This document shows positions 1 through 16,376 of a DNA stretch of 17,770 nt, piece after piece. The stretch's first letter is position 1; each line of letters opens with the position of its first letter. The notes beneath the pieces were generated by a model, which was not told the origin of the DNA, made no database searches, and saw only the letters and a list, made by a program, of their open reading frames with translations. The position numbers and the translations under genes are program-made. This DNA is from a virus, in UHGV virus genome UHGV-0302460; one strand, written 5' to 3'.

Positions 1-319
1 AGTGATGAGAGCAACAGGCTGAATCAGGGCGTGTTTGTTGATGACTGGGGGCGTCCCGAAAAATATCTGGTGTATAAAAGTCGTCCCGTATCCGGACGGC
101 AGATGGAAACCAAAGAAGTGGATGCAGAGCGAATGCAGACGTCCCGCGCATCTGGTGCAGACGGCGAACAAATTTAAGATGCAGCATTCGCTCTGCATCC
201 ACTTCTTTGGTTTCCATCTGCCGTCCGGATACGGGACGACTTTTATACACCAGATATTTTTCGGGACGCCCCCAGTCATCAACAAACACGCCCTGATTCA
301 GCCTGTTGCTCTCATCACT
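1..319. repeat. Perfect inverted repeat pair at left window edge: arm 1..136 is the reverse complement of arm 184..319, with a 47-bp non-palindromic spacer (137..183)
   Basis: Checked base by base: reverse complement of 1..136 equals 184..319; the match stops at 137/183. Arm 1 starts at the window boundary, so the repeat may continue beyond the window. Confidence 0.9.
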
Positions 320-856
320 GGTCATGGGAATAAAGTCTGGCTCGAGCGCCTCCAGCCAGAAATGAACACCGGCAGAAGGCGTCAGGCTGTTTATGCGCCC
401 GGAAACCATCTGGGCAAACACCTCACCATCGCGCAGCCAGGTACGCAGCATCAGACGTTCCAGCATCGGACGGGTAAACTGCCCGGTGACTTCCGGGCTG
501 ACAGACCATTCACTCCATCGGGTGCGAATCTCCGCAGCCAGGTCACGGGCAATGGCCCCATTGCGTAATACCGGATGTGGCTCGACAATAATCCCGTTTT
601 TCCCCACCACCCGTTCTTCCAGCTTGTCAAATACACCAATAACCAGATCGTGGTTGTTATCAAGGTAACGGGCCTGCTCACGTAACGACACGGCCCCGTA
701 CTGGCTTAGCTGGTCGGCAGTTCGGTTCTCCCGTCGGGCTTTGTGTGTCCGCGTCGTTTTTACGGCTTCATAAGCCTGGATCACCGCACGGGAACGCAGC
801 CTTGCCGCTTTCCATCCTGGTGAAAAAACGCCAATCACATCATCAAGAATTGCCAT
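137..856 (-). CDS. Phage portal protein, lambda-like family, 5' part only; the gene runs into the fold-back repeat
   Basis: ATG at 856..854 overlaps the gpW-like stop (TGATG). The frame is open to the window start. Translation MAILDDVIGVFSPGW...GVFVDDWGRPEKYLVYKSRPVSGRQMETKEVDAERMLHLKFVRRLHQMRGTS has portal-like character and the position after terminase and gpW fits. It was missing from the ORF track because it runs off the window edge. Codons read from 136..1 are the inverted copy of 184..319 and are probably not real portal sequence. Confidence 0.65.
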
Positions 857-1074
857 CAGAACCTCGCCAGCCGGTACCCGGGATGCCCCCGTCGTCGTGT
901 AATCAGAGCCGCAAGGCGGCGCTCCCACTCCTGCCGCCCCTGCCGGATCTCAGATAAGTTTTCCATGGTCATCTGCTGACCATTAAAGGTGACGGATTTT
1001 CCGTCCAGCACCGCCATTTCAGCTTCCGTATAACGCTGAATCATGGCTTCGATATCATTCTGGTTCATAACCAT
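856..1074 (-). CDS. gpW-like head-tail joining protein
   Basis: 72-aa ORF between large terminase and portal, the same position as lambda W. C-terminal RRRGHPGY resembles lambda W RRRGPAGF. Start overlaps the terminase stop. Confidence 0.55.
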   Translation of the reverse strand: MVMNQNDIEAMIQRYTEAEMAVLDGKSVTFNGQQMTMENLSEIRQGRQEWERRLAALITRRRGHPGYRLARF

Positions 1075-3167
1075 CCTCCGGAAGTCAGCCAGGGGTTAAC
1101 ATCGTCAGTTACTGTTTTCTTCCGTTTTTGTTTTTTAACAGGCGTGGATACCGGTTCCGGTGAGGATGACGGTTCGGTACTGTCCTGGACACACTCCAGC
1201 CAGGTTTCCCGGCTCGCCCACTCCGGTGCATCCGGCCAGCGGATCTTTTCGTATCCATGCAGAATGACCAGAGCCTCGGCATACACCATCAGGTCAAAAG
1301 CTTCGTTGGCACCGCGACCCGGCTTACTCCATTTCCCGTCACTGCTCCGCTCTTCATACGTCAGTTCGTCGTAAAACCAGCTCCCCAGCCAGTCAGGGAA
1401 ATGCACATAGCCGGGACCTGGCGAGTCACGCCATAACGCGTTATTCACCCGGTCTTTCAGTGCATCCGTCTGAAGAAGCCAGAGCGGCACATCACCTGCG
1501 GCCTGCGCCCGTCGGCCCGTTCGTCCGGTGTTATCAGGGAATGTACGGGTGATCAGTTTTGCGCGCCGGATGCTGTCGCCCTTAAACAGGTAAATACGTT
1601 TACCAAGGCCATCACGACGGCAACGACGCCAGAATTTATAGGCATTATCAGTGACCCCGTCTTCACCGCCGGAGTCCACCGCCATTGCCATCAGTCGCAT
1701 TTGTTGAGAAGGATCGGAGGCCAGCGGCCAGCTTTTATGAAAAACATCCGTCAGCAGGACATCCCAGTCTTCCGGATAGCTGGCCGGATCAATTCGCTGG
1801 CTCTCCCCGTCGCTGTCACCGCGCAATGACTGCGTGATGTTGTAACGATCAATAATCCAGCGTTCGCCACGGCTGCCATAGCCCGTTACCTGAACCACAA
1901 AACGGCGATGACGTCCCGCCTGCACATCCACTGTCGCCACAAGGAAATTAACGCCATCCGGCACACTGCGGGAAGGAACTGGCTCTGCCCGCTGCTCAAG
2001 CAGTTCACTTTTTCGTTGCTCCATGCTGGCGCGGGGAAGATAAGGTAATCCCCAGTCGGTATTGATAACCGTCTTGAGTGTTTCTTCACTTCCGGTTGTC
2101 TCGTATTCCTGTTCTGCAGTAAGCAGTTTGTAAACGAGTTGCGAGAGTGTCTGGTAAGCAGCTGCCGGACCCTCCATCCAGAATGACGCAATACGTGAGC
2201 GTCGGGGATCACCATAACGACTGCCATCCGCATTGATGGATTCACCATCCCGCAACCAGACCCCACGTCCGTTCAGCTCACGTTTTTGTTCAGGCATAAT
2301 CCGTCCTGAACAGGAAGGACACTGAATATAAGCCGCCTCACTTGCCAGCACGGGATCGGCAATATCACGGAAACCAGCAACCACATCGCCGCAGGGCTGA
2401 AAATACTCACCACAGTGTGGACAAGGCCAGTACCAGCGACGGCGATCGCCACGGTTATAGAGCGACAGTATCCCCGTGGTTGGTGGAGCCTCATGCGGTG
2501 AAGTCCGTCGCCATTTCACATCCTTCACATCCCTGCCGGGGGAACTCTCCACAAGCGTCATACCACTGGACATAAATGTTGTGGTACGTTTTGAGGCAAG
2601 AGAGAAAGCATCCCCCTCGCCATCAATATCTTCCGGAAAACGGTCATAATCCGTCAGCGCGACGCATTTATAATCTGATGAGGACATGATATTGACTGAC
2701 GGCCAGCCGATTTTCAGGTAGTTACCAGCAAGGAATGTTCTGTCATAAACGTTGTTGTCATTTTTGTTCGGACTCAGGCGACTGACCACTTCCGGGCTGA
2801 CGCGAAACGTTCTGGCGAGTCGTTTTTTGGAGTGTTCGCGGGCTTTTTCCTCCGTCATCTGTATGATCAGCATATCAGCAGGATCGCAAATCACGTTGTA
2901 AATCACCCAGCCGTCAATCAGGCCGATAGTCTTGCCGGTTCGTGCCGGGCCAACAAATATCACTGCGTCGTATTCACGCGAGGCCAGGCAGTTCATCGGC
3001 TCAATAACATACGGTGCCACCAGCGGATCCCACGGGACTGAGTTCCCTGCCCCCATGGGCACCCGCATATACTGAGCAACGGCATCAGCAACCCGCATTC
3101 GTCTCGGTGCGCGAAGGATATAACCTGAATCGGTTCGTGCTGCCTTTGCGGTTTCCTGATTCAGCAT
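1065..3167 (-). CDS. Terminase large subunit, lambda gpA-like
   Basis: 700-aa ORF with a Walker A-like GPARTGKT motif and a WPCPHCGEYFQ motif resembling lambda A ACPHCGEEQYL. Its ATG overlaps the stop of the upstream small terminase (TAATG). Confidence 0.85.
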   Translation of the reverse strand: MLNQETAKAARTDSGYILRAPRRMRVADAVAQYMRVPMGAGNSVPWDPLVAPYVIEPMNCLASREYDAVIFVGPARTGKTIGLIDGWVIYNVICDPADMLIIQMTEEKAREHSKKRLARTFRVSPEVVSRLSPNKNDNNVYDRTFLAGNYLKIGWPSVNIMSSSDYKCVALTDYDRFPEDIDGEGDAFSLASKRTTTFMSSGMTLVESSPGRDVKDVKWRRTSPHEAPPTTGILSLYNRGDRRRWYWPCPHCGEYFQPCGDVVAGFRDIADPVLASEAAYIQCPSCSGRIMPEQKRELNGRGVWLRDGESINADGSRYGDPRRSRIASFWMEGPAAAYQTLSQLVYKLLTAEQEYETTGSEETLKTVINTDWGLPYLPRASMEQRKSELLEQRAEPVPSRSVPDGVNFLVATVDVQAGRHRRFVVQVTGYGSRGERWIIDRYNITQSLRGDSDGESQRIDPASYPEDWDVLLTDVFHKSWPLASDPSQQMRLMAMAVDSGGEDGVTDNAYKFWRRCRRDGLGKRIYLFKGDSIRRAKLITRTFPDNTGRTGRRAQAAGDVPLWLLQTDALKDRVNNALWRDSPGPGYVHFPDWLGSWFYDELTYEERSSDGKWSKPGRGANEAFDLMVYAEALVILHGYEKIRWPDAPEWASRETWLECVQDSTEPSSSPEPVSTPVKKQKRKKTVTDDVNPWLTSGGWL

Positions 3168-3661
3168 TACTCCTCCCGCTGTAATTCCTCCTCATCATCC
3201 GCACCTGCTTCGGTCACCCGCAGGGCTATCTGATCGCGCAGATCATCAATAATGGACTGAACACGGCTCACAGCGGCAGGCTGCAGACCGCAGTCACGTT
3301 CAAGAATATCCGGTAATGTCTCCAGCACCTGCACGACCGCTTTTGCCCAGATGGCAAACTCCCGTCTGACATCACTGGCCGGAATGAGTTGTGCCGTTTC
3401 CTGTTCGAACTTAAGACGCTCACGTTCAGACTGATACCAGGCTTTGCGCTCATGCGCGTCCATTTCGCCTTCTGCAACCGGCGGTGGTAATGCCAGAAAT
3501 GCCGACACAATATCAACCACCCGATAAAGCTTGAGGTTGCTTTCATGCCCCCCTGCAACGGGTAGATTTTGCAGCCTTGCCGCAGCAGTCTGGCGATGTA
3601 CACCTGACAGTGCCGCCAGTTGACTGATATTCAGCGTCAGATTTTTTAACTCTCGATCCAT
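3167..3661 (-). CDS. Terminase small subunit, Nu1-like
   Basis: 164-aa ORF directly upstream of, and translationally coupled to, the large terminase. N-terminal HTH-like segment (LTLNISQLAALSGVHRQTAAARL) and acidic C-terminus. A cos-like site lies about 170 bp upstream. Confidence 0.65.
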   Translation of the reverse strand: MDRELKNLTLNISQLAALSGVHRQTAAARLQNLPVAGGHESNLKLYRVVDIVSAFLALPPPVAEGEMDAHERKAWYQSERERLKFEQETAQLIPASDVRREFAIWAKAVVQVLETLPDILERDCGLQPAAVSRVQSIIDDLRDQIALRVTEAGADDEEELQREE

Positions 3662-3824
3662 ACCCGCTCCAGAATGTTTTAAACATGCATCTTGCGAACA
3701 ACTTTAGGCAAACGGTGTTAGTGATGAACAAAAAACAATCAAAATCGACACCACAAAAATAAAACCACTGTAATATCAATACATTACAGCAGTGGTGATG
3801 ACGAATGAAATTTCAAAAACTAGC

Positions 3825-3880
3825 CTTTTTCCGCGACGCTCCCGCCCCGTGGCAGGCCACCCCACCGGAAGGACCCGCCA
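3825..3880 (-). other. Putative cos packaging site (cosQ/cosN-like)
   Basis: Minus strand reads GCGGGTCCTTCCGGTG...CCACG GGGCGGGAGCGT CGCGG. From memory, the lambda right end and cos read ACGGGTCCTTTCCGGTGATCCGACAGGTTACG GGGCGGCGACCT CGCGGG. The putative 12-nt core maps to 3836..3847 and matches the lambda cohesive end at 8 of 12 positions, with conserved flanks. Confidence 0.45.
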
Positions 3881-4114
3881 AAATGAGAGTGATTATCACC
3901 ATTGCTGATGAATAAATTGATGAAAATCATTGAAACGCCTTTCAGCAAGATAACGGCGACGGTCGTTGTTGAACTCCGTAGCTCTGCTACTAAGGTTAAA
4001 AGCATGGCCATCTTTTGCCACCGGCAAATCTTCAATGGATTTCCCCTGCCGGTTTTTTATTCCTCACATTATCGCAGCCCCTCAGTGAAGGGCTGCTGTA
4101 ATGCCTGCTCTTAC

Positions 4115-4477
4115 TCAGTAACGACCGCGCCTTCCGGTAATTTCATACCGGCAAATACCGGACAGCCCGGGGATCGTTATCTGCAGCTGGTTAGCCAGGG
4201 AGTTAATCTCAGCGACCAACACTGGCTTCGTATAGCGCCATGCCGCCAGCCCTTGTCCACAGAAGCTCGCCATATCTTTTTTCTGATCAAACTCATGACA
4301 CTTCATATTGAGCTGCGCACTTAAGCTGTTGCGATGCTGAAGTTCTCCGGTGAAGTAGTCATCCAGGACTTTATAGGCTGCATATTTAAATCCGGGGTTT
4401 AGCCATGCTGCATAATCATAAGCAACAAACTTCCCGCCATATGTTCCACCGTGTACACCGCGCTCAGTAAAAACCAC
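4115..4477 (-). CDS. Hypothetical protein; N-terminus resembles the C-terminal half of a KilA-N domain, possibly a 5'-truncated remnant
   Basis: 120-aa ORF with a GTG start 21 nt after the minus-strand Rz stop. GGTYGGKFVAYDYAAWLNPGF resembles the KilA-N C-terminal motif GTWvHp.lA...A.WLsPeF, but the N-terminal half of the domain is absent. Confidence 0.35.
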   Translation of the reverse strand: MVFTERGVHGGTYGGKFVAYDYAAWLNPGFKYAAYKVLDDYFTGELQHRNSLSAQLNMKCHEFDQKKDMASFCGQGLAAWRYTKPVLVAEINSLANQLQITIPGLSGICRYEITGRRGRY

Positions 4478-4498
4478 AGATTCGTGTTTTTTCTCCAG

Positions 4499-4645
4499 CT
4501 ACTTAATGCGCTGGGTGCGGATATATTCCTGCGCCCCTTCCAGTTGCTTCTGCATCGTCATCAACCGTTCTCTGAGGGTGAAATAATCCCGTTCAGCGGT
4601 GTCTGCCAGTCGGGGGCTGGTTGCATTATCCATGCTGGTGGGTCC
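4499..4645 (-). pseudogene. Rz (i-spanin) C-terminal fragment on minus strand
   Basis: Minus-strand translation ...[50 protein letters not shown] with stop at 4501..4499 matches the lambda Rz C-terminus pattern. Its upstream continuation is broken at 4645/4646. Confidence 0.6.
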
Positions 4646-4913
4646 CGCTGACATGCAGCAGCGTCAGCGTGATGTTGCTGCGATCGATGCAAAATACACG
4701 AAGGAGTTAGCCGATGCGAAAACTGAAAATGAAACTCTGCGCGCTGATGTTGCCGCTGGTCGTAAGCGCCTGCGGGTCAATGCCAGTTGCTCCGCAGCCG
4801 TGCGTGAAGCCACCGGACCCACCAGCATGGATAATGCAACCAGCCCCCGACTGGCAGACACCGCTGAACGGGATTATTTCACCCTCAGAGAACGGTTGAT
4901 GACGATGCAGAAG
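4646..4913 (+). pseudogene. Internal Rz fragment in inverted (plus) orientation
   Basis: Plus-strand translation [88 protein letters not shown] is a contiguous mid-to-C-terminal Rz segment. It lacks the N-terminal TM anchor and the native C-terminus. Confidence 0.6.
4714..4899 (+). CDS. Rz1-like o-spanin lipoprotein, copy 1, nested in the inverted Rz fragment
   Basis: 61 aa: [61 protein letters not shown]. Signal peptide with lipobox-like VVSAC and a proline-rich body, typical of lambda Rz1, in the +1 frame inside Rz. Confidence 0.6.
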
Positions 4914-5222
4914 GCGCTTACGACCAGCGGCAACATCAGCGCGCAGAGTTTCATTTTCAGTTTTCGCATCGGCTAACTCCTTCGTGTATTTTGCATCGAT
5001 CGCAGCAACATCACGCTGACGCTGCTGCATGTCAGCGATGGTGGCGGTCGCCTGCTTCAGCTCACTGACTTTTTTATCACGCTGTTCTTTGTAGGCGATG
5101 GCGTTATCACGGTAATGATTGACCGCCCACGACAGGCAGACGATGATGCAGATAACCAAAGCATAAATAATCGCGGCGACTCTGAGTGAGCTGAAGCAGT
5201 CGATCGCCACCATCGCTGACAT
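4912..5222 (-). pseudogene. Rz (i-spanin) N-terminal fragment on minus strand, with TM anchor
   Basis: Minus-strand translation ...[93 protein letters not shown] matches the lambda Rz N-terminus [21 protein letters not shown].... The expected native start near 5184 is replaced by a junction; the only ATG is a fortuitous one at 5222. The fragment ends at the 4911/4912 junction. Confidence 0.6.
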
Positions 5223-5526
5223 GCAGCAGCGTCAGCGTGATGTTGCTGCACTCGATGCAAAGTACTCGAGAGAATTAGCCAATGCGAAAGCTGAAAATGA
5301 AACTCTGCGCGCTGATGTTGCCGCTGGTCGTCGTCGGTTGCACATCAAAGCAGTCTGTCAGTCAGTGCGTGAAGCCACCACCGCCTCCGGCGTGGATAAT
5401 GCAGCCTCCCCCCGACTGGCAGACACCGCTGAACGGGATTATTTCACCCTCCGGGAACGACTGGTAATGATGCAGGCCCAACTTGAAGGTGCTCAGCAAT
5501 ACATAACCGAGCAGTGTTTAAAGTAA
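5185..5526 (+). pseudogene. Rz (i-spanin) copy 2, N-terminally truncated, lacking the TM anchor
   Basis: Translation (L)[113 protein letters not shown] is very close to lambda Rz from about residue 45 to the end. There is an in-frame stop at 5164..5166 and the first ATG is at 5221. This resembles the rzpR pseudogene situation in the K-12 Rac prophage. Confidence 0.7.
5282..5467 (+). CDS. Rz1-like o-spanin lipoprotein, copy 2
   Basis: 61 aa: [61 protein letters not shown], nearly identical to lambda Rz1 as I remember it. Lipobox VVGC; nested in the +1 frame of Rz copy 2. Confidence 0.8.
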
Positions 5527-5663
5527 AATCTTAACTACAATATGATTCATTTTGATGATTGTTTCATAAGGAACAGTGAAGTAAGATCTAAGAGGAGTTA
5601 AATTTTATACAGTATAATCATAATATTGCAGCAAGGTGGTTATAATTGAAAGAATATTTAGAT

Positions 5664-7121
5664 ATGAATACATCTCATGTAAGAGTTGTTACTCATATGT
5701 GTGGGTTCCTGGTTTGGCTCTATAGTCTTTCAATGTTGCCACCAATGGTTGTAGCATTGTTTTATAAAGAAAAAAGCCTGTTCGTTTTCTTTATAACTTT
5801 CGTTATATTTTTTTGCATTGGTGGCGGAGCGTGGTATACAACTAAGAAATCTGGCATTCAATTACGTACCCGTGATGGGTTTATTATAATTGTAATGTTT
5901 TGGATTTTGTTTTCTGTTATTAGTGCATTCCCTTTATGGATTGACTCAGAACTTAATTTAACGTTCATTGATGCTCTGTTTGAAGGGGTTTCTGGAATAA
6001 CAACAACAGGAGCAACTGTAATTGATGATGTTAGTTCATTACCTCGGGCATATTTGTACTATCGGTCACAGTTAAATTTTATAGGTGGTTTAGGAGTTAT
6101 TGTTCTGGCGGTTGCTGTATTGCCATTATTGGGTATTGGTGGTGCAAAGCTTTATCAGTCAGAAATGCCGGGGCCATTTAAGGATGACAAACTCACTCCC
6201 CGCCTGGCCGATACGTCACGGACACTGTGGATAACTTATTCTTTATTAGGTATTGCTTGTATTGTCTGTTATAGACTTGCAGGAATGCCTTTGTTTGATG
6301 CTATTTGTCACGGGATTTCCACAGTTTCGCTTGGTGGTTTCTCAACTCATAGCGAGAGTATCGGATATTTTAATAACTATTTGGTTGAGCTGGTGGCTGG
6401 TTCTTTTTCCCTGCTATCGGCTTTCAACTTCACTCTTTGGTATATTGTTATTAGCAGGAAAACGATAAAACCTTTAATCAGAGATATTGAACTTCGTTTC
6501 TTTCTGTTAATAGCCTTAGGGGTGATCATTGTTACCTCTTTCCAGGTCTGGCATATAGGTATGTATGACTTGCATGGAAGTTTTATTCATTCGTTTTTTC
6601 TTGCCAGCTCCATGCTCACTGATAATGGTTTAGCTACGCAGGATTATGCAAGTTGGCCCACGCACACGATAGTGTTTTTGCTGTTGTCAAGTTTCTTTGG
6701 GGGATGTATAGGTTCAACTTGTGGTGGAATTAAGTCACTTCGATTTCTTATACTTTTCAAACAAAGCAAACACGAGATAAATCAGCTTTCTCATCCCAGA
6801 GCGTTGTTGAGTGTAAATGTAGGAGGGAAGATAGTTACAGATCGTGTAATGAGGTCTGTATGGAGTTTCTTTTTTCTTTATACTCTCTTCACGGTGTTTT
6901 TTATACTGGTGTTAAATGGTATGGGATATGATTTTCTTACATCATTTGCAACAGTGGCTGCATGTATTAATAATATGGGATTAGGTTTTGGGGCTACTGC
7001 ATCGTCATTCGGAGTGCTTAATGACATTGCAAAATGTTTAATGTGCATAGCTATGATTCTTGGTCGCCTTGAAATTTATCCTGTTATTATATTGTTTTCA
7101 GGTTTTTTTTGGCGCTCCTAA
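5664..7121 (+). CDS. trkG: TrkH/TrkG-family potassium uptake membrane protein
   Basis: Reading from the ATG at 5664 gives 485 aa starting MNTSHVRVVTHMCGFLVWLYSLSM..., which I recognise as E. coli TrkG (a Rac prophage gene). It is a multi-pass membrane protein with GIGG-type selectivity-filter-like motifs (LLGIGG, GFGATA). The coding region is strongly AT-rich compared with its flanks. The ORF-track start at 5646 is a TTG upstream extension. Confidence 0.88.
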   Translation: MNTSHVRVVTHMCGFLVWLYSLSMLPPMVVALFYKEKSLFVFFITFVIFFCIGGGAWYTTKKSGIQLRTRDGFIIIVMFWILFSVISAFPLWIDSELNLTFIDALFEGVSGITTTGATVIDDVSSLPRAYLYYRSQLNFIGGLGVIVLAVAVLPLLGIGGAKLYQSEMPGPFKDDKLTPRLADTSRTLWITYSLLGIACIVCYRLAGMPLFDAICHGISTVSLGGFSTHSESIGYFNNYLVELVAGSFSLLSAFNFTLWYIVISRKTIKPLIRDIELRFFLLIALGVIIVTSFQVWHIGMYDLHGSFIHSFFLASSMLTDNGLATQDYASWPTHTIVFLLLSSFFGGCIGSTCGGIKSLRFLILFKQSKHEINQLSHPRALLSVNVGGKIVTDRVMRSVWSFFFLYTLFTVFFILVLNGMGYDFLTSFATVAACINNMGLGFGATASSFGVLNDIAKCLMCIAMILGRLEIYPVIILFSGFFWRS

Positions 7122-7258
7122 TATATGGCTGATTTATAATTGTGAGTTTAATATTATGTTGACTCACTCATTGATCCAATACCTAACTTTACCAGCAACC
7201 CCTCCGTCCCCAGTAGCACTGGCTGCTGGGGTGCGTTTTATTCATAAAGCAAGGCTGT

Positions 7259-8050
7259 ATGAGCGAGAAATTAAAGATAGTCTATCGCCCATTACAAGAA
7301 TTGTCACCGTATGCGCACAACGCCAGGACGCACAGTACTGAGCAGGTGGCACAACTGGTAGAAAGTATTAAGCAATTCGGCTGGACTAATCCGGTGCTGA
7401 TTGACGAAAAGGGCGAAATTATTGCGGGTCACGGTCGTGTTATGGCGGCTGAAATGCTCAAAATGGATTCTGTTCCGGTCATTGTTCTGTCTGGCCTGAC
7501 GGATGAGCAGAAAAAGGCGTACCGCCTGGCAGATAATCGCCTGCCGATGAATGCTGGCTGGGATGAAGATCTGTTGCGGATGGAGCTGTCGGACCTAATC
7601 AATGCTGATTTTGATGTCTCCCTGACAGGCTTCATCCCGACAGAAATTGATGAACTGTTGACGGATGTTTTGCCCGGTACAGGAAATGAGGAGGAGCCGT
7701 ATACGACGAAAATTGATACGCCTGTTTATGAGCCGTCGGGCGGTAAACCGGATATCAGTGAACTGTACGACGATACGAAAACTCAGGAGCTGATCAGCCG
7801 GATACGTTCGGCGTCCCTTGAGCCTGATATTGAGAAATTCCTCCTGTGTGCGGCAGAACGTCACACGGTGTTTAATTTCAGCAGAATTGCGGACTATTAC
7901 GCTCACGCCCCCTCTGAAATTCAGTGTTTTTTCGAGGAGTCGGCGCTGGTGATCATTGATTATCAGCAGGCTATTGAAAATGGATTTGTCCGGATGACGC
8001 AGCGCATGGTGGAGATCATGCATGGTGGTGAGGAGGAGGAATATGCGTGA
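7259..8050 (+). CDS. ParB-like nuclease domain protein
   Basis: The 263-aa N-terminus IVYRPLQELSPYAHNARTHSTEQVAQLVESIKQFGWTNPVLIDEKGEIIAGHGRVMAA fits the ParB/Srx N-terminal domain pattern (GxGR motif). The position after trkG matches the ynaK region of Rac. Confidence 0.7.
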   Translation: MSEKLKIVYRPLQELSPYAHNARTHSTEQVAQLVESIKQFGWTNPVLIDEKGEIIAGHGRVMAAEMLKMDSVPVIVLSGLTDEQKKAYRLADNRLPMNAGWDEDLLRMELSDLINADFDVSLTGFIPTEIDELLTDVLPGTGNEEEPYTTKIDTPVYEPSGGKPDISELYDDTKTQELISRIRSASLEPDIEKFLLCAAERHTVFNFSRIADYYAHAPSEIQCFFEESALVIIDYQQAIENGFVRMTQRMVEIMHGGEEEEYA

Positions 8051-8975
8051 TGATTTTTGCGCCTTTATTCTGACTCACGGGCGACCGGACAAAGTTCTGA
8101 CTTACCGGACGTTGCGTCGTGCTGGCTATACCGGGAAAATTTTTATCGTTGTTGATGATGAAGATAAGACACGGAATCAGTACATGGCTGAATTTGGTGA
8201 ACAGGTGCTGGTGTTTTCCAAAGCCGATATCGCCAGTCGTTTTGACGAAGCCGATAATTTCTGTGACCGCCGCTCAATTTTTTACGCCCGTAATGCCTGT
8301 TTCGACCTGGCAAAACTGGTCGGGTGTAAATACTTCATTCAGCTCGATGATGATTATCACGAGTTCCAGTTTCGGGTGGATCGCAACTATGACCAGGCCT
8401 ATTTTCCGATAAGGAAACTGGATGCGATCCTTTCTGAAATGCTGGCGTACTACGAATCAATACCTGCTCTTTCCATCGCTATGTCGCAGGGCGGGGATTT
8501 TCTTGGTGACAATGGCGGCCATGCTTCGTGGGTGAAACGCAAGGCAATGAACAGCTTTATCTGTTCGGTTGATCGACCGTTCTCATTCATGGGGCGCATT
8601 AACGAGGATGTGAATACGTACACGAATCTCGGTCGCTGTGGTGAATTGTTTATGACGATCGGTGCTGTCCAGTTAGGGCAGAAACAGACGCAGAAAAACA
8701 GCGGCGGAATGACCGAGCTGTATCTGGATTCCGCAACCTACGTTAAAAGTTTTTACTCCGTCATGTATGCGCCGTCGTGCGTAAAAATCTCACTGATGGG
8801 TGCCAGCCATAAACGCATTCACCATCAGGTCACCTGGAACAACGCTGCAGTAAAAATCCTTCACGAAAAATACAGGAAGAAGACACCCTGCATATCAATG
8901 GGGGTGACAAATGATTCCGTATTCGAAAGTCGAGTCTCTGGCAGCGTGCCGGATGACTGCACAACAAATCGCTGA
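8043..8975 (+). CDS. Hypothetical protein with possible GT-A glycosyltransferase-like features; function unknown
   Basis: ATG at 8043 follows a strong SD (GAGGAGGAGGA, 8029..8039) and overlaps the ParB-like stop, so it is preferred over the ORF-track start at 8022. N-terminal FILTHGRPDKVL...KIFIVVDDED and a later QLDDDY motif resemble a GT-A Rossmann-like fold with a DxD motif; this is a weak, motif-level call. Confidence 0.5.
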   Translation: MRDDFCAFILTHGRPDKVLTYRTLRRAGYTGKIFIVVDDEDKTRNQYMAEFGEQVLVFSKADIASRFDEADNFCDRRSIFYARNACFDLAKLVGCKYFIQLDDDYHEFQFRVDRNYDQAYFPIRKLDAILSEMLAYYESIPALSIAMSQGGDFLGDNGGHASWVKRKAMNSFICSVDRPFSFMGRINEDVNTYTNLGRCGELFMTIGAVQLGQKQTQKNSGGMTELYLDSATYVKSFYSVMYAPSCVKISLMGASHKRIHHQVTWNNAAVKILHEKYRKKTPCISMGVTNDSVFESRVSGSVPDDCTTNR

Positions 8976-9162
8976 CGTTCTGGATGTTGATCTGAACCGA
9001 CTGAAAGAAAATCGGGAAGCAATGACAGATTTTTATGCGGCCATCCGTAAGGGCAGAGCGAAAGGTGAAGCCGAGTTACGAGCGGCATTGTTTAAGCTTG
9101 CCAGAAAAGGGGATGCCTTTGCTCTGCGCGAACTACTCAGGGTGGATAAAAATCAGGACTAA
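8911..9162 (+). CDS. Small HTH-like protein, possibly terminase-associated
   Basis: 83-aa ORF immediately upstream of the small terminase. The helix-turn-helix-like segment MTAQQIADVLDVDLNRL is followed by a basic helical region. Start is uncertain (8911 or 8953); it overlaps the upstream gene by 65 nt if 8911 is used. Confidence 0.45.
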   Translation: MIPYSKVESLAACRMTAQQIADVLDVDLNRLKENREAMTDFYAAIRKGRAKGEAELRAALFKLARKGDAFALRELLRVDKNQD

Positions 9163-9165
9163 CTG

Positions 9166-10260
9166 ATGAGCAGACCGGACTGGGGGGCGTTGCAGCAGGA
9201 GTATATTGCTGAATACACCCGCTCCGGTATATCTCCGGTGGCATGGTGTGAAGCAAGGGGACTGAATTACGCAACAGCCCGTCGTTACATCAAAAAAACT
9301 CCGAAAAATGCGCAGACAGAAATGTGCAAAACTGCGCAAAAAAGTGCGCAGAAAAAATCTGCGCAGACTGCACAAAAGCGGAACGAAAAATCTCAGGAAA
9401 AAAAGCCAGTATTCGATGCGGGCCTGAATGAGGGCGACGCGGAGGAATTTTCGTTCTGTCCCGATGAATTCGGCATTTCTGACCAGCAGGCTAAGTTTGC
9501 GATGCTTGTTGCTCAGGGTAAAAAGCCGACAGAGGCGTACCGACTAGCCGGTTATGAGGGGCAAGGTGCGACAGCTAACAGCAACGCCAGTCGTATGCTT
9601 AGAAATGCCAGGGTTTTTCGCGCTATCAGCTACTTCCGCAATCAGTACCAGAAACGCTATACCGCAGACCTGGATTTACTAGTGAGTCAGTTGATGGCTA
9701 TTGTCCTGGCCGACCCCAATCAGCTTGCACAATTTCGCCGTGTTAACTGCCGTTATTGCTGGGGCGAGAATCATCTCTACCAGTGGCGCGATATAGCAGA
9801 ATTCGACAAGGCAGCGGCGCAGGCTTCCAGAGATGGCAAACCCGAACCGGAATATGGAGGCCTCGGCTTTGTTGATAACGCCATACCCAATCCGGACTGC
9901 CCGAAGTGCTGCGGTGAGGGAACGGGACAGCTTTATATGGCTGATACCACTCTGCTTGATGGGGATGCGCGGCAATTATATGCAGGGGCAAAATTCGGAA
10001 AATTCGGCGTTGAGATCCTGCTGGAGGATAAGGCTGCCGCCCGGCGTGAATTGTTGCGTTTGTTTTCTGCTGGCGGGGCTTTATGTGCAGATAAACGGCT
10101 ACAGGAACTGGAAATTGAACGGCGCAGAATGGAAAACCAGAAGCTGCGCAAAGAGATCGAAACGGTGGAAGATAATGAACATCCCCAGCCTGTGGCGATC
10201 AATATTAATGTGGTTGATGCCAGAGTAAGGAGTGATGAAGATGATCTCTCCGACGCTTAA
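9166..10260 (+). CDS. Terminase small subunit (P27-like family), long form with Cys4 motif
   Basis: Central segment ISDQQAKFAMLVAQGKKPTEAYRLAGYEG...NASRMLRNARV matches the terminase small-subunit signature. It sits directly upstream of the large terminase. It also has a low-complexity K/A/Q-rich stretch, a CRYCWG...CPKCCGEG zinc-ribbon-like motif and a C-terminal coiled-coil-like segment. Confidence 0.7.
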   Translation: MSRPDWGALQQEYIAEYTRSGISPVAWCEARGLNYATARRYIKKTPKNAQTEMCKTAQKSAQKKSAQTAQKRNEKSQEKKPVFDAGLNEGDAEEFSFCPDEFGISDQQAKFAMLVAQGKKPTEAYRLAGYEGQGATANSNASRMLRNARVFRAISYFRNQYQKRYTADLDLLVSQLMAIVLADPNQLAQFRRVNCRYCWGENHLYQWRDIAEFDKAAAQASRDGKPEPEYGGLGFVDNAIPNPDCPKCCGEGTGQLYMADTTLLDGDARQLYAGAKFGKFGVEILLEDKAAARRELLRLFSAGGALCADKRLQELEIERRRMENQKLRKEIETVEDNEHPQPVAININVVDARVRSDEDDLSDA

Positions 10261-11542
10261 TGTGCCTCAGGCGCGATTTCTTTCAATGCCCCATAAATTT
10301 AAAGCCTATATTGCTGGTTTTGGCTCGGGCAAAACATGGGTTGGGTGTGGCGGCATATGCAAGGGGATTTGGGAGCATCCAGGTATAAATCAGGGATATT
10401 TTGCGCCAACGTATCCCCAAATTCGCGATATTTTTTACCCTACAGTGGAAGAAGTTGCTGCTGACTGGGGATTGAACGTAAAAATTAATGAGGGAAATAA
10501 AGAGGTTCACTTTTATTACGGACGCCAGTATCGGGGAACCACTATCTGCAGATCGATGGAGAAGCCACAAACGATCGTCGGTTTCAAAATTGGTAATGCG
10601 TTGGTGGATGAACTGGACATTTTGCCGAAGGAAAAAGCCAGAACGGCGTGGCGCAAGATAATTGCACGTATGCGTTATAAGATTGATGGACTTCGCAACG
10701 GTATTGACGTTACAACCACGCCGGAAGGATTCAAATTTGTCTACGAGCAGTTTGTTAAAGCCGTGCGTGAAAAAACAGAGCTGGCCTCACTGTATGGTCT
10801 GGTGCAGGCATCTACTTTCGATAATGAAAAGAACCTGCCAGCAGATTACATTCCTTCGCTTCTTGAATCATACCCTCCAGAGCTGATTAAAGCCTATCTT
10901 CGAGGACAGTTTACTAACCTGACAAGTGGTACTGTTTACCATCAGTTTGACCGGAAACTGAATAATTGCGAAGAAGTGGAGCAGCCAGGGGAGCCGATTT
11001 ATATTGGGATGGATTTTAACGTTGGAAAGATGGCGGGAATCGTCCATGTGCTGCGTTTGGGGCTTCCATGTGCGGTAACTGAAATCATCAATGCCTACGA
11101 TACGCCGGATATGATCCGCATCATTAAAGAACGCTTCTGGCTGTATGATGGGAATGATTACCGGAAAGTGAGGGAAATTTATATTTATCCAGATGCTTCC
11201 GGGGATTCCAGAAAATCAAGTAACGCAAGTACGACGGATATAGCCCAGCTTAAGCAGGCTGGTTTTAACGTTGTGGTGAACAGCTCGAACCCGCCAGTAA
11301 AAGATCGCGTTAACTCAATGAATGCAATGTTCTGCAATGCCAATGGTGAGCGTCGCTATAAAGTTAATGTGAAGCGTTGCCCGTTATATGCCGAATCTCT
11401 GGAGCAACAGGTCTGGGATGAGAAGGGGGAGCCTGATAAAAAATCTGGCAATGATCACCCGAATGATGCCGGAGGTTATTTCATCGTTAAGCAATTCCCT
11501 ATTGTCAAACCGACCGGAAGAGTCACATCACTTCGGATTTAA
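10241..11542 (+). CDS. Terminase large subunit
   Basis: Walker A-like AGFGSGKTW near the N-terminus, nuclease-type acidic residues in the C-terminal half, and a position between small terminase and portal. The ATG at 10241 is preferred because of the AAGGAG at 10227..10232; alternative starts are the GTG at 10232 and the ATG at 10235. Confidence 0.85.
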   Translation: MISPTLNVPQARFLSMPHKFKAYIAGFGSGKTWVGCGGICKGIWEHPGINQGYFAPTYPQIRDIFYPTVEEVAADWGLNVKINEGNKEVHFYYGRQYRGTTICRSMEKPQTIVGFKIGNALVDELDILPKEKARTAWRKIIARMRYKIDGLRNGIDVTTTPEGFKFVYEQFVKAVREKTELASLYGLVQASTFDNEKNLPADYIPSLLESYPPELIKAYLRGQFTNLTSGTVYHQFDRKLNNCEEVEQPGEPIYIGMDFNVGKMAGIVHVLRLGLPCAVTEIINAYDTPDMIRIIKERFWLYDGNDYRKVREIYIYPDASGDSRKSSNASTTDIAQLKQAGFNVVVNSSNPPVKDRVNSMNAMFCNANGERRYKVNVKRCPLYAESLEQQVWDEKGEPDKKSGNDHPNDAGGYFIVKQFPIVKPTGRVTSLRI

Positions 11543-11544
11543 TT

Positions 11545-12951
11545 ATGGCTGATATATCAACACCCAACCTCGACTATAACGATATGCTGGAGGCGTGGGA
11601 TATTAACGACGCACTGATGGGCGGTACGCTTGAAATGCGCAGGCAGGGGGAAAATTATCTCCCAAAATGGCCTAACGAAGATGAAGACGCTTATAAAAAA
11701 CGCCTGTCTGTGGCTACGCTACTTCCTGTGTATGAAGAAAGCATCAAGCAAAATATTGGGCGCATATTTGCAGAGCCGACAGTATTGAGTGAGGAAACGC
11801 CGGCAAAAATCAGGGAATATGCAGAAAATATCGACATGGAGGGGAGCCGACTGGATGTGTGGGCGCAGCAATTTTTCAGCCTCGCATTTCAGTATGGTGT
11901 GGCACATGCGCTGGTGGACTATCCACGAACGGATATGAAAGAGATTCGTACAAAAGCCGATGAAAACGCGACCGGTGGTCGTCCGTACGTTACGATGCTG
12001 AATCCACGCCAGGTTATTGGATGGAAATCGAAAGTTGAAAAAGGGAAAGTTGTTCTCACTGATTTGCGTATAAAAGAGGTCATCATTATTGATGGTGATG
12101 ATTTCGGGCAGAAGAAGGTGGAGCAGATCCGCCATATTATGCCCCGTCGAGTTGAAATTTATCGACGTAGCGAAGGCACTAATGGCGAATCTGTCTGGAC
12201 GCTTCATGAGTCATGGAATACCAGCCGTGATGATATTCCTCTGGTAACACTGTACACGAAGAAAACAGGATTTATGCGTGGTACACCGCCATTGCTTAAT
12301 CTTGGCTTGCTGAATATCAAGCACTGGCAAAGCCAGAGCGAGCAGGACAATATTCTTCATGTTACCCGCGTTCCATTGCTGGTGGCCTACGGGCTGGACA
12401 GGAATGAAGAACTGACGGTTGGTGCATCCACCGCTACGATTTTTGAGGACAGAACAAAAAATGGCCTCGAATATGTTGAACATAGTGGCGCAGCGATAGA
12501 ATCTGGCGAAACATCACTTGAGAAGCTGGAAAATCAGATGCGTCATGCCGGCGCTAAACTTCTGCGTGCTGAAAATACATCCACCAAATCTGTTGATCAG
12601 ACTAATGAAGAGCGAATGCAGGAAAACTCGCCGCTTTATACAATGGCGAACTCCCTCGAAGATGCCCTCGATAATATTCTCCAGATAATGGCGGAATGGA
12701 TCGGAGAGAGTTGCGGTGGCAATGTGGATGTGCGCACTGAACTGGATGTATCTGCCCAGGTGTTTGACTCATCCTCCGCGCTGGCTGTTCAGTCATTGCG
12801 TCAGGGCGGTGATATACGTCAGATTGATGCGGTTCGGGTGTTGCAGGCGTTGAAATTTATCGATCAGGATTCCCGTCCAGAGGAAGTGATCGATGAATTA
12901 AAAAATCAGAGTGTAATGCTGATGGAAATCAATGATGCAAACCGTGAATGA
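11545..12951 (+). CDS. Phage portal protein
   Basis: 468-aa ORF immediately after the large terminase and before the head-morphogenesis gene, with size and position typical of a portal. No motif was verified. Confidence 0.7.
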   Translation: MADISTPNLDYNDMLEAWDINDALMGGTLEMRRQGENYLPKWPNEDEDAYKKRLSVATLLPVYEESIKQNIGRIFAEPTVLSEETPAKIREYAENIDMEGSRLDVWAQQFFSLAFQYGVAHALVDYPRTDMKEIRTKADENATGGRPYVTMLNPRQVIGWKSKVEKGKVVLTDLRIKEVIIIDGDDFGQKKVEQIRHIMPRRVEIYRRSEGTNGESVWTLHESWNTSRDDIPLVTLYTKKTGFMRGTPPLLNLGLLNIKHWQSQSEQDNILHVTRVPLLVAYGLDRNEELTVGASTATIFEDRTKNGLEYVEHSGAAIESGETSLEKLENQMRHAGAKLLRAENTSTKSVDQTNEERMQENSPLYTMANSLEDALDNILQIMAEWIGESCGGNVDVRTELDVSAQVFDSSSALAVQSLRQGGDIRQIDAVRVLQALKFIDQDSRPEEVIDELKNQSVMLMEINDANRE

Positions 12952-14047
12952 ACGGCTGCGTGATGAATCAATTGCTCATGCAGTCTGGATATCCCGCTAT
13001 AGCACTGGCGTGGCTGCCAGAATGGTGAAAATACTGAATGACAGCGATGCGGAACTTACTGCTCGCCTGCTGATAGCACTGGACAGCCTCGATCCAGGTA
13101 ATTTTACCGTTAAGCGCCTGGAGTCACTTCTGGCGAGCGTCAGAGAGGTTAACCGCACTGCTATTAACAGCATGTTTACCAGTCTCTCCGGAGAGCTGAA
13201 CGAGCTGGCAATTTATGAGGCTGGTTATCAGTTAAGTCTGTTTGATTCTATGCTACCTGATTTTGTTGCTGATGTTCACCCTCTGGTTGGTATCTCTCCT
13301 GATGCACTTTATGCCGCTGCAATGGCGCGACCATTCCAGGGACGACTGCTCAGTGAGTGGGCCTCAGATCTTGAGGCGGATCGGCTCAGACGCATAACAA
13401 ATACAGTGCGTCAGGGTTTTTTGCTGGGGGATACCAATGAGCAGATCGCAAGAAAAATTCGGGGACATGTCAGTAAGGGATTTCAGGATGGTGCATTGCA
13501 GATGAGCCGGGCTAATGCGGCCAGCATTGCAAAAACAGCGGTTGGACATCTTGCTGCTACTGCCCGTGAGAGTTTTGCCAGCGCGAATAATGATTTGATT
13601 AAGGGTAAGCAATGGTTATCAACGCTTGATAATCGTACTACGCCACAATGTCGAATCAGGGATCGCCTCAAATATACGCTGAATAATAAACCTGTAGGTC
13701 ACAGCGTGCCTTATTTGCAGGGGCCGGGAAAAATTCATTTCTGCTGCCGCTCAACGGAAACGTTCATTCTGAAATCAGCGAAGGAACTGGGTATTGATGT
13801 TCGCGATATTTCCCCGGCTGAGCGGGCCAGCATGGATGGCGTGGTGGCCGGAGATACAACCTACAGGGAATGGTTTTTGCGTCAGCCTTACACCAGACAA
13901 AAACAGATTGTGGGGGAAACCCGAGCAAAGCTGATTCGGGATGGTGGTATGTCGCCAGATGAATTTTACACCGATAAAGGCGAATGGCTGACGCTGAAGC
14001 AGCTCCGTGAGCGTGATGCACAGGTATTCAGAAAAGCAGGGATTTAA
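12932..14047 (+). CDS. Head morphogenesis protein (Mu F-like / SPP1 gp7-like minor head protein)
   Basis: 371 aa following the portal. Contains the characteristic ...LSTLDNRTTPQCRIRD... motif seen in Mu F-like head morphogenesis proteins. Confidence 0.7.
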   Translation: MMQTVNERLRDESIAHAVWISRYSTGVAARMVKILNDSDAELTARLLIALDSLDPGNFTVKRLESLLASVREVNRTAINSMFTSLSGELNELAIYEAGYQLSLFDSMLPDFVADVHPLVGISPDALYAAAMARPFQGRLLSEWASDLEADRLRRITNTVRQGFLLGDTNEQIARKIRGHVSKGFQDGALQMSRANAASIAKTAVGHLAATARESFASANNDLIKGKQWLSTLDNRTTPQCRIRDRLKYTLNNKPVGHSVPYLQGPGKIHFCCRSTETFILKSAKELGIDVRDISPAERASMDGVVAGDTTYREWFLRQPYTRQKQIVGETRAKLIRDGGMSPDEFYTDKGEWLTLKQLRERDAQVFRKAGI

Positions 14048-14066
14048 ATAAATCATTTATTACAAC

Positions 14067-14093
14067 AGGCTACCTTCGGGTGGCCTTTTTTAT
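14067..14093 (+). terminator. Putative rho-independent terminator (UUCG tetraloop hairpin plus T-tract)
   Basis: AGGCTACC-TTCG-GGTGGCCT forms an 8-bp stem (one G-T wobble) with a TTCG loop, followed by TTTTTTATT, just downstream of the head-morphogenesis stop. Confidence 0.55.
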
Positions 14094-14151
14094 TGCTGCG
14101 ATCCGGATGGTGAGCAGCGTAACTGTCGGAAGACTTAAACCAGGTACTAAT

Positions 14152-14916
14152 ATGAAACTGAAAACGGTCGAGATTAACGGAAAACAATACGCAGAAATTG
14201 ATACTGCTGGCCTGCCAGTTTATGTGCACGACGATGGTAAAGAAATTGGCTTCGATGCACCGCTGGCGACAAAAAAAATTACAGAGCTTAATGGCGAGGC
14301 AAAAAATCATCGCCTGGCTAAAGAAGCTGCAGAGGAAAAACTGGCTAAGTTTGCCGCTATCGAAGACCCGAAGAAGGCGATCGAGGCACTGGAAATGCTG
14401 TCAAAAATCGACCAGAAAAAGCTGCTCGATGCGGGACAGGTTGACCAGGTTAAGGCAGAAATTACGAAAAATTTTCAGCAGCAATTAGATGAAGAAAAGC
14501 AACGCTCTCAGATGCTGGAGAAGCAGCTTTACGATTCTATGATTGGCGGTAGTTTTGCGGGTTCAAAATATATTGCCGATAAAATTGCGATCCCGGCAGA
14601 TTTATTACAAGCCCGCTTCGGGCAGGCATTCAAAGTGGAAGAAGGGAGGATCGTTGCTTATGACGCTTCCGGCAACAAAATTTATTCCCGCGCGAAGCCT
14701 GGCGAACTGGCGCAGTTTGATGAGGCGCTGGAGTTCCTTGTCGAAAATTACCCTCAGAAAGACTACATCCTGAAAGCCAGTGGCAACAATGGCGGCGGCT
14801 CCCGTCCGACACAGCATGATATTGGTCAGAAAACGATGAAACGCTCTGCTTTTGATGCACTGGATGTTGCAGGTAAGCAAAACGCATTGAAAGACGGTAT
14901 CACAATCGTTGATTAA
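14152..14916 (+). CDS. Scaffolding protein (putative)
   Basis: About 254 aa, charged and predicted helical (EEKLAKFAAIEDPKKAIEALEMLSKIDQKKLL...), located immediately upstream of the major capsid gene. Start is uncertain (ATG 14152 preferred; ATG 14107 possible). The ORF-track start at 14080 would lie inside the terminator hairpin. Confidence 0.55.
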   Translation: MKLKTVEINGKQYAEIDTAGLPVYVHDDGKEIGFDAPLATKKITELNGEAKNHRLAKEAAEEKLAKFAAIEDPKKAIEALEMLSKIDQKKLLDAGQVDQVKAEITKNFQQQLDEEKQRSQMLEKQLYDSMIGGSFAGSKYIADKIAIPADLLQARFGQAFKVEEGRIVAYDASGNKIYSRAKPGELAQFDEALEFLVENYPQKDYILKASGNNGGGSRPTQHDIGQKTMKRSAFDALDVAGKQNALKDGITIVD

Positions 14917-15014
14917 CACATTTGTCAGCTTCCGGATGGGAGCTGGTGTCAGGGCTGGATAGCTCATTACTCCATCTATTCACAATTACGCAAATTTTTA
15001 AGGAATATTTAATT

Positions 15015-16154
15015 ATGGCTGGAAATACCCTGACCGGGTTGATCCCGACTATTTATACCGCCCTGGATGTTGTATCCCGTGAGCAGGTAGGTTTTATCCC
15101 TGCGGTAGCAAAAAACGCAAAAGCTGACGCCGCAGCAAAAGATCAGACGGTAACCGCGCCAGTTGCGCCTGAGGCGAAAACCGAAGATATCGTACCGGGG
15201 CCGTCAGCTCCGAATACCGGTGATCAAAATATTGGCACTGTTGATGTAAAAATTACTAAATCCAAAATGGCACCGGTTAAATGGAATGGTGAAGAACAAC
15301 TGGCTCTTGGCCCTTCAGGGACTTACAACACCATTCTGGCTGATCAGTTCAAGCAGGCTTTTCGCGCCCTTGCAAACGAGGTTGAGGCTGATCTTGGTGC
15401 GTTGTATTTCGGTGCTTCCCGCGCCGTGGGAACCGCAGGGACAACGCCGTTTGGTGTTAAAGATGATCTTTCTGATGCTGCTCTGGCTCGTCAGGTTCTG
15501 GAGGATAACGGCGCACCGACAACCGATCTGCAGATGGTGCTTGGCTCCACTGCCATTGCTAATTTGCGCGGAAAACAGTCTGTATTGTTTAAAGTGAATG
15601 AATCCGGCACTGAACAGCTACTGCGTGAGGGCGTGTTGGGGCGTCTGGAGGGATTCAATATTCACAGTTCGGCAGGTGTGAAACGAGCGCCAAAGGTTGC
15701 TGCAACTGGTTATCTCGTGAATGGAGAGAAAAAAGAAGGCGATGTTCTTATTTCCATTGATACTGGTTCGGGGAGTATTTCTGCAGGTCAGATTGTTACG
15801 TTCGCTGGTGATCCGAATCAGTATGTTGTGGCAGCAGCGACCAGCAATCTGATTACTCTTGCAGCGCCCGGACTGCGTCAGGATCTGGCCGATGATACTG
15901 CCATCACAGTTGTTGGGGCCTTTACGGCAAATATGGCGTTTGATCGCAACGCGTTTCTGCTGGCATCCCGTACTCCGGCAATGCCGGAAGGTGGCGATAA
16001 TGCTGATGATGTAATGAATGTTACGGACCCGATTTCAGGGATTACGTTCCAGATTGCACTGTATCGTCAGTATCGCCAGGTGCGCTATGAAGTTGGACTG
16101 GCATGGGGTGTTTCATCAGTGAAGCCGGCACATGGTTGTCTGATTCTTGGTTAA
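15015..16154 (+). CDS. Major capsid protein (putative)
   Basis: ATG at 15015 follows AAGGA. About 379 aa, downstream of the scaffold and followed by a strong terminator. Segments such as TPFGVKDDLSDAALARQVLEDNGAP and GVLGRLEGFNIHSS resemble phage coat proteins. Confidence 0.7.
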   Translation: MAGNTLTGLIPTIYTALDVVSREQVGFIPAVAKNAKADAAAKDQTVTAPVAPEAKTEDIVPGPSAPNTGDQNIGTVDVKITKSKMAPVKWNGEEQLALGPSGTYNTILADQFKQAFRALANEVEADLGALYFGASRAVGTAGTTPFGVKDDLSDAALARQVLEDNGAPTTDLQMVLGSTAIANLRGKQSVLFKVNESGTEQLLREGVLGRLEGFNIHSSAGVKRAPKVAATGYLVNGEKKEGDVLISIDTGSGSISAGQIVTFAGDPNQYVVAAATSNLITLAAPGLRQDLADDTAITVVGAFTANMAFDRNAFLLASRTPAMPEGGDNADDVMNVTDPISGITFQIALYRQYRQVRYEVGLAWGVSSVKPAHGCLILG

Positions 16155-16164
16155 ACATTCAAAC

Positions 16165-16187
16165 GGGGCTTCGGCCCCATTTTTAAT
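16165..16187 (+). terminator. Putative rho-independent terminator (UUCG tetraloop hairpin plus T-tract)
   Basis: GGGGC-TTCG-GCCCC followed by ATTTTTAAT, 11 nt after the capsid stop. Confidence 0.55.
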
Positions 16188-16196
16188 GGGGGGCAT

Positions 16197-16373: not shown

Positions 16374-16376
16374 CAC

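Follow-up and report, generated by a model that had tools for sequence, protein, structure and literature searches.

A probable lambda-supergroup cos site carrying a common non-lambda cohesive-end allele in a chimeric-looking viral contig

The Feiss laboratory has defined the lambda-like phages by 12-base 5' ends related to those of lambda, and has reported strong conservation of three elements of their cos sites, namely the 7-bp cosQ, bp 1-6 of the cohesive end and the CG dinucleotide at each nick (PMC4669245). Differences at bp 7-12 of cosN are common, those of N15 falling at positions 9 and 12 and those of Gifsy-1 at positions 8, 9 and 11, and the lambda large terminase (TerL) nicks such right-half variants efficiently, being positioned by small terminase (TerS) bound at cosB (PMC4669245). 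For mEp213 and LLS a 2025 paper gives 5'-GGGCGGCGCGCT and calls this cos 'putative' (PMC12315714), and in these two phages, as in N15 and Gifsy-1, the variation is limited to bp 7-12 (PMC12315714, PMC4669245). Among the phages that turned out to resemble the locus described here, phi458 is a spontaneously induced, plaque-forming siphovirus whose description gives no cos location (PMC9701743), the authors of Ayreon expected a cos upstream of terS and did not locate it (PMC5764929), and Tritos, the LF82 prophage 3, was obtained from plaques in a study that describes sequencing of virions but no mapping of cos (PMC9928086). In both the records and the papers of phi458, mEp460, Ayreon and vB_EcoS-569R4 the cos is unannotated.

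Here we describe a site on the minus strand of UHGV virus genome UHGV-0302460, of which the whole stretch of 17,770 nucleotides is called the window below. In all likelihood this feature is the cos of a temperate phage of the lambda supergroup, of the mEp460/phi458 type. That reading is built on the observed architecture of the site, its conservation and co-variation among relatives, the families of the adjoining genes, the termini of deposited genomes and sequence identity with a viable phage, from which we infer that the site would be active in this particular host.

Match of cosQ and cosN to lambda

A sequence-only reading of the window had reported a lambda-like cosQ-cosN region on the minus strand, with conserved flanks around a divergent core, and comparison with the lambda record bears this out. 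From 3876 to 3831 the minus strand runs GGGTCCT-TCCGGTG-N12-ACG/GGGCGGGAGCGT/CGCGG, and its lambda counterpart (NC_001416) is GGGTCCT-TTCCGGTG-N12-ACG/GGGCGGCGACCT/CGCGG, slashes marking the presumed nicks; the longer stretch from 3880 to 3821 reads TGGCGGGTCCTTCCGGTGGGGTGGCCTGCCACG GGGCGGGAGCGT CGCGGAAAAAGGCTA. The lambda record has ...ACGGGTCCTTTCCGGTGATCCGACAGGTTACG at its 3' end and begins with GGGCGGCGACCTCGCGGG (longer: GGGCGGCGACCTCGCGGGTTTTCG), which agrees with the lambda sequence that the reading had quoted. All three parts of the match are present, namely CGGGTCCTTCCGGTG at 3877-3863, the core GGGCGGGAGCGT at 3847-3836 and CGCGG at 3835-3831. In alignment with NC_001416 the core is identical to lambda GGGCGGCGACCT at 8 of 12 positions, the count first proposed; bp 1-6 are all identical and the mismatches occur only at bp 7, 8, 9 and 11, where the first base of the core is numbered bp 1. 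The downstream CGCGG is kept, and the sole difference of the upstream flank from that of lambda is one missing T between cosQ and CCGGTG.

The packaging-termination element cosQ, GGGTCCT, lies at 3870-3876 on the minus strand and is identical to that of lambda. It starts 29 bp before the top-strand nick, as against 30 bp in lambda, and our alignment shows that it is kept in PhiR47_1, CP-1639, mEp213, VT1-Sakai, Kp4865-4 and cdtI. The 16-bp cosN, CG/GGGCGGGAGCGT/CG, occupies 3834-3849 of the same strand and has CG at both presumed nicks, as does lambda; its rotational symmetry extends to 8 of 16 positions, compared with 10 of 16 in lambda. From the sequence, the CG flanks and the ends of deposited genomes, the top-strand nick would fall at 3848/3847 and the bottom-strand nick at 3836/3835. 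The predicted product is a 12-nt 5' cohesive end, GGGCGGGAGCGT (3836-3847, minus strand), and the complementary end would be ACGCTCCCGCCC. Beyond cosN follows the block CGCGGAAAAAGGCTAGTTTTT (bp 13-33; 3815-3835, minus strand). It is unchanged in cdtI and Tritos, remains conserved among phages that have the DUF1441-type TerS and aligns with lambda CGCGGGTTTTCGCTATTTATG.

The four differences of the window from lambda fall within bp 7-12; this half is documented as free to vary because a terminase anchored at cosB nicks the bottom strand with little sequence dependence. This pattern of differences is exactly the known one. A full-text literature search for GGGCGGGAGCGT, its reverse complement and sibling alleles returned only unrelated eukaryotic, G-quadruplex and construct papers. 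A dedicated survey of cosN was reportedly made by Vahanian et al. in 2017 (Virology 509:140).

Terminase genes and cosB

The genes that follow the site are those of a terminase. On the minus strand, terS (3167-3661) encodes a small terminase of 164 aa with an N-terminal helix-turn-helix (HTH; Pfam DUF1441, E = 2.7e-41), and terL (1065-3167) encodes a large terminase of 700 aa of the gpA family (GpA_ATPase E = 8.6e-72, GpA_nuclease E = 1.1e-85). The terS ATG (3661) lies 174 bp from the end of the core (3836), close to the figure of about 170 bp given earlier; in bp numbering the ATG stands at 187 in the window, as against 185 in cdtI and 191 in lambda. TerL shows 25% identity to lambda gpA (E = 5e-19) and 88% to its cdtI counterpart, and is presumed to be both the endonuclease that nicks cosN and the packaging ATPase. 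It has already been published that cosQ, the left half and the CG flanks stay fixed, here despite a TerL at 25% identity, as the right half drifts.

The description of terS as 'Nu1-like' holds for remote homology and fails for membership of the Pfam Nu1 family. BLASTP of TerS against Nu1 found no similarity and Pfam assigns DUF1441 only, not Phage_Nu1, whereas an hhalign comparison of 50 DUF1441-type with 47 Nu1-type sequences aligned 136 columns with a probability of 94.6% (E = 7e-8), laying HTH on HTH. The residues of TerS that align with the Nu1 recognition helix include the invariant H22, R23, T25 and R29. It is likely, judging from these profiles, that TerS works like Nu1 although it stands outside the Pfam Nu1 family. 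A search with the TerS profile against PDB sequences gave nothing significant, the matches including an HTH regulator at E = 0.33.

The segment between cosN and terS has the parts expected of cosB, all on the minus strand. A putative R3 site for TerS binding, TCGTCATCACCAC, lies at bp 44-56 (3792-3804), and a putative R1, TGTTCATCACTAAC, at bp 118-131 (3717-3730). Both are contained in the copies of a 24-nt direct repeat (3795-3818 and 3721-3744, respectively) returned by a repeat tool, 71% identical and 74 bp, or about 7 helical turns, apart; the two copies, of which that at R1 is the second, compare as TTTTGATTGTTTTTTGTTCATCAC against TTTTGAAATTTCATTCGTCATCAC. Between them are a putative I1 site for integration host factor (IHF), TAATGTATTGATA, at bp 62-74 (3774-3786), which matches the IHF consensus YAANNNNTTGATW (the reverse complement of WATCAANNNNTTR) perfectly, and a putative inverted R2, GTGGTGTCGAT, at bp 94-104 (3744-3754; reverse complement ATCGACACCAC). 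The inverted R2 was recognised in a multi-phage alignment and is not among the output of the repeat tool; it has TC..CACCAC in common with R3, in the opposite orientation.

That alignment comprised the window, PhiR47_1, Chris1, CP-1639, mEp213, VT1-Sakai, Gifsy-2, Fels-1, Kp4865-4, cdtI and lambda. In all relatives a TCATCAYCAY motif equivalent to R3 occupies the corresponding place and varies in concert with R2 and R1, the R2 counterpart is ..GTGTCGA or ..GATGATGA in all of them and changes along with R3, and the R1 counterpart is conserved as GTTCATCAC or GTTCGACAY. The three sites co-vary by lineage, with CACCAC in the window, CATCAT in mEp213, Fels-1 and VT1-Sakai, and CACTGA in all three Gifsy-2 copies. 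The IHF element of the window occupies the same alignment columns as lambda TAATGTTTTTATT, which we take to be I1, and the relatives retain this motif. R3 has been placed at bp 50-65 in lambda and bp 48-60 in N15, and the putative R3 of the window is comparable in location; by its sequence, the segment is a cosB with the lambda layout of R3-I1-R2(inverted)-R1 and other R sequences (PMC9026076). The altered R sequence is consistent with a different TerS recognition helix, and the R and I1 sites would be bound by their respective proteins.

Compared with lambda as a whole, the locus is alike in cosQ, bp 1-6, the CG flanks, the order and orientation of the sub-sites, the aligned IHF site and a TerL of the gpA family. 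It differs in its R sites, which are CGTTTCC(G/T)TTCT in lambda and TCATCACCAC in the window, and in that Nu1 is only remotely related to the DUF1441 TerS. mEp213 and LLS share the DUF1441 TerS family (57-58% identical) and the overall architecture with the window but carry a different right-half cosN allele, given above as their putative cos; in mEp213 cosB is also shorter, with the terS ATG at bp 130 and R1 overlapping the start codon.

About 37 cosB variants are 95-99% identical to that of the window. Their substitutions cluster around bp 57, 66-68, 79-82 and 92-95, where they flank the IHF site and sit in R2, and the remainder of cosB is invariant among them.

Relatives, deposited genome ends and allele frequencies

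The closest relatives are phi458, mEp460, Ayreon and vB_EcoS-569R4, which have the same cosQ, cosN, cosB and TerS (site 96.7-100% identical, TerS 98.8-99.4%) and whose cos regions show essentially no difference from that of the window. Against the annotated small terminases of phi458, Ayreon, mEp460 and others the TerS identity spans the same 98.8-99.4%, being 99.4% for phi458 and Ayreon. Between phi458 and the window no base differs in the 109 nt that span the site (100% identity), and over positions 137-4645 of the window the two are collinear at 99.4% identity.

Two deposited genomes bear on the position of the cut. The cdtI record (AB285204) ends in ...CCACG and starts with GGGCGGGAGCGTCGCGG (GGGCGGGAGCGTCGCGGAAAAAGGCTAGTTTTT), so that its last base matches position 3848 of the window and its first base position 3847; the two sequences are 100% identical for 253 nt to the left of the nick and 33 nt to the right. 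Likewise, the Tritos record (OV696610) ends in ...CCACG and starts with GGGCGGGAGCGT, and is cut at the same position as cdtI. The depositors were independent, the cdtI record having been deposited with a 2007 description and that of Tritos in 2022, and the ends of both records may have been set by analogy with lambda. Because the first 12 bases of cdtI and Tritos are the proposed 12-mer and their last base is the one preceding it, the suggestion of a lambdoid phage with a cohesive end other than that of lambda holds; the locus has all the sequence features of a lambda-type cos and an intact terS-terL pair directly downstream.

cdtI and Tritos are identical to the window from cosQ to cosN, in GGGCGGGAGCGT and in the next 21 nt. 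Beyond that point neither their cosB nor the DNA-binding N-terminus of their TerS is related to its counterpart in the window, and similarity returns in the C-terminal half of TerS and in TerL (cdtI TerS has 179 aa and is 42% identical overall). With respect to both phages a sharp mosaic joint lies at about 3815 on the minus strand, 21 nt past cosN. This joint is a swap of a specificity module made up of cosB and the TerS DNA-binding domain, comparable to the difference between lambda and phage 21.

Two surveys of viral contigs show how frequent the allele is. In the first, contigs were scanned for lambda-like flanks with bp 7-12 left free, and the matches listed (n = 123 sites) comprised 55 with GGGCGGGAGCGT, 24 with the lambda core, 20 with GGGCGGGAGCGG, 10 with GGGCGGCAGCGG, 5 with GGGCGGAAGGCG and nine singletons. 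In the second, all 12 positions between the CG and CGCGG flanks were left free, and its results were pooled with those of the first. Among the matches listed in the pooled surveys (172 distinct contexts), the lambda allele accounts for 65 and the window allele for 47, which makes GGGCGGGAGCGT the second commonest allele after that of lambda. In the same listed matches bp 1-6 are GGGCGG in about 96% of the 172 contexts, a share biased somewhat upwards because the first survey fixed bp 1-6, bp 7-12 are variable and the 12-bp spacing dominates. The cohesive end is therefore distinct, as had been claimed, in the sense that it differs from that of lambda, but it is not unusual, being one of the two commonest alleles. 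Since it is very common and already stands at the ends of two deposited phage genomes, we regard the allele as ordinary.

The core allele is also untied to the type of terminase. Among the matches listed, GGGCGGGAGCGT is combined with one TerS type at 33 loci and with the other at 17, and one left-flank type pairs with five different cores, that of lambda included; this mixing of core, TerS and left flank indicates that cos is a mosaic joint.

The region from cosQ to cosB is found in 1461 of 5426 complete E. coli genomes (at least 80% query coverage), and in none of these 1461 does the RefSeq annotation mark anything at the site. In the set of species-representative genomes, the exact variant together with its flanks is confined to E. 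coli, E. ruysiae and two metagenome bins (MAGs). These two MAGs, one of Veillonella parvula and one of Bacillota (binned as Firmicutes), carry the exact Escherichia-type variant, and they are most likely cases of binning carry-over, that is, of mis-binned phage contigs.

Assembly context, alternative readings and proposed mechanism

The window looks like an assembly chimera. Positions 1-136 are the exact reverse complement of 184-319, and 17635-17770 of 17356-17491; at 4646-5184 the sequence zig-zags in alternating orientation within Rz, and this stretch is the link between two blocks, one phi458-like (137-4645) and the other from a Rac-like prophage (5185-17532). The two blocks stand side by side in no complete E. 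coli genome. The plus strand of 5646-17563 holds a second, unrelated module, carried by the Rac-like prophage, in which trkG (potassium transporter cargo) precedes a ParB-like gene, small and large terminase genes of the P22 type, a DUF4055 portal and a capsid of the P22 family; a prophage of E. coli SE11 matches it at 99.7% identity. Given this second, P22-type module, the window has two packaging systems, one of the cos type and one presumably headful. In a contig of such chimeric appearance, the prophage may be incomplete or not inducible.

This context speaks for the strongest of the alternatives, namely that the site is a true cos by descent but inactive and never cut in this host, being either left over in a prophage that is defective or truncated or an artefact of the assembly. 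The 136-nt fold-backs at both ends, the joining of two prophages at the Rz zig-zag, the lack of any complete E. coli genome in which the two halves adjoin, and the fact that only about 4.5 kb of phi458-like phage is visible would all fit a relic. We nevertheless consider this reading unlikely, since the visible block is 99.4% identical to and collinear with the viable phi458, both terminase genes have their full length and score strongly for their domains, and all cos sub-sites are intact. The cos lies inside a clean block and is untouched by the apparent chimera joints.

A functional cos that is cut with a different stagger or at other nicks than lambda, for example with a 9-11-nt overhang or a shift of at least one base, is less probable still. 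The spacing between CACG and CGCGG does vary among relatives, from 9 nt in the mEp460_4F5 record (GGGCGGGAG) through 10 in CP-1639 and 11 in VT1-Sakai to about 14 in Gifsy-2; the mEp460_4F5 record starts 5 nt ahead of the presumed nick and is without 3 nt of the core. These differences could be real changes in cohesive-end length, defective prophages or sequence errors, and with 9-11 or about 14 nt between the flanks in some relatives, not every member of the clade need have a 12-nt stagger. Moreover, a 9-nt end has been reported for a cyanophage whose TerS is of this family (PMC9303873), and TerL shares only a quarter of its residues with gpA. In the window, however, exactly 12 bp separate the CG flanks, which is the lambda distance; the cdtI and Tritos records have exactly the predicted ends, and the 12-bp spacing is the dominant one in the survey.

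It has also been described that phage-inducible chromosomal islands (PICIs) carry cosQ and cosN nearly identical to those of their helpers, so that a PICI hijacking a lambda-like helper terminase might show such a site, but a PICI cos has the rpp gene next to it and is without R repeats (PMC9026076). The gene content downstream refutes this origin, leaving it only the slightest probability: the window has R repeats, and after terS and terL come a head-tail adaptor gene and then the start of a portal gene, collinear with phi458. Upstream of cos are a gene with an ORF11CD3 domain and the Rz gene. Finally, chance likeness of a GC-rich stretch to lambda cos, for which the short length of the core speaks and nothing else, is refuted, since the composite pattern GGGTCCTNCCGGTG-N12-ACGGGGCGG-N6-CGCGG, built solely from positions that the window and lambda have in common, has one match in the window with 0 mismatches and appears in 0 of 200 dinucleotide-preserving shuffles of it even with up to 3 mismatches tolerated, since the region recurs in the complete E. 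coli genomes counted above, and since its distance to terS is conserved; the alignment to lambda, which might have exposed the similarity as spurious, upholds it.

For the preferred reading, a cos of the mEp460/phi458 type, we propose a mechanism by homology with lambda. Dimers of the DUF1441 small terminase, a remote Nu1 homolog with an N-terminal HTH, would bind R3, R2 and R1 of cosB (3804-3717), and host IHF would bend the DNA at I1 (3786-3774) and thereby aid this binding. The bound complex would place the gpA-family large terminase on cosN, where it would nick the top strand at 3848/3847 and the bottom strand at 3836/3835. Separation of the strands would then yield 12-nt 5' overhangs, 5'-GGGCGGGAGCGT at the left genome end and 5'-ACGCTCCCGCCC at the right end. 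Packaging would run from cosB into terS and terL, that is, toward lower window coordinates, and would end at the next cos, for which cosQ (3876-3870) would be needed along with cosN. After injection the ends would anneal and be ligated.

We also considered whether the right-half cosN alleles, of which there are at least 14 on conserved flanks, are kept as a compatibility barrier rather than by neutral drift, an idea that we hold to be doubtful. The end GGGCGGGAGCGT has 4 mismatches with the lambda end, and 2 mismatches between ends have been found to cost about four-fold in yield (PMC4669245). If there is such a barrier, packaging begun at the cos of one phage and ended at that of another would produce mismatched sticky ends, and alleles like GGGCGGGAGCGT would partly isolate co-resident lambdoid prophages and perhaps satellite islands. 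Beyond annotation the importance of the site is small: the position of cos and its core orient genomes of the phi458/mEp460 type, and a known cos predicts the direction of packaging and hence any cos-dependent transduction or effects of Chi orientation.

A minor observation concerns the DNA on the far side of cosQ. A palindrome, GATAATCATTATC, which resembles the core of a Fur box, lies 4-8 nt upstream of cosQ in lambda, mEp213, CP-1639, VT1-Sakai and Kp4865-4; in Tritos, PhiR47_1 and mEp460_4F5 the left flank lacks it. The window has a degenerate version of it, GATAATCACTCTC, at 3885-3897 on the minus strand, and with up to two mismatches the palindrome is present in 38 of 86 distinct upstream contexts.
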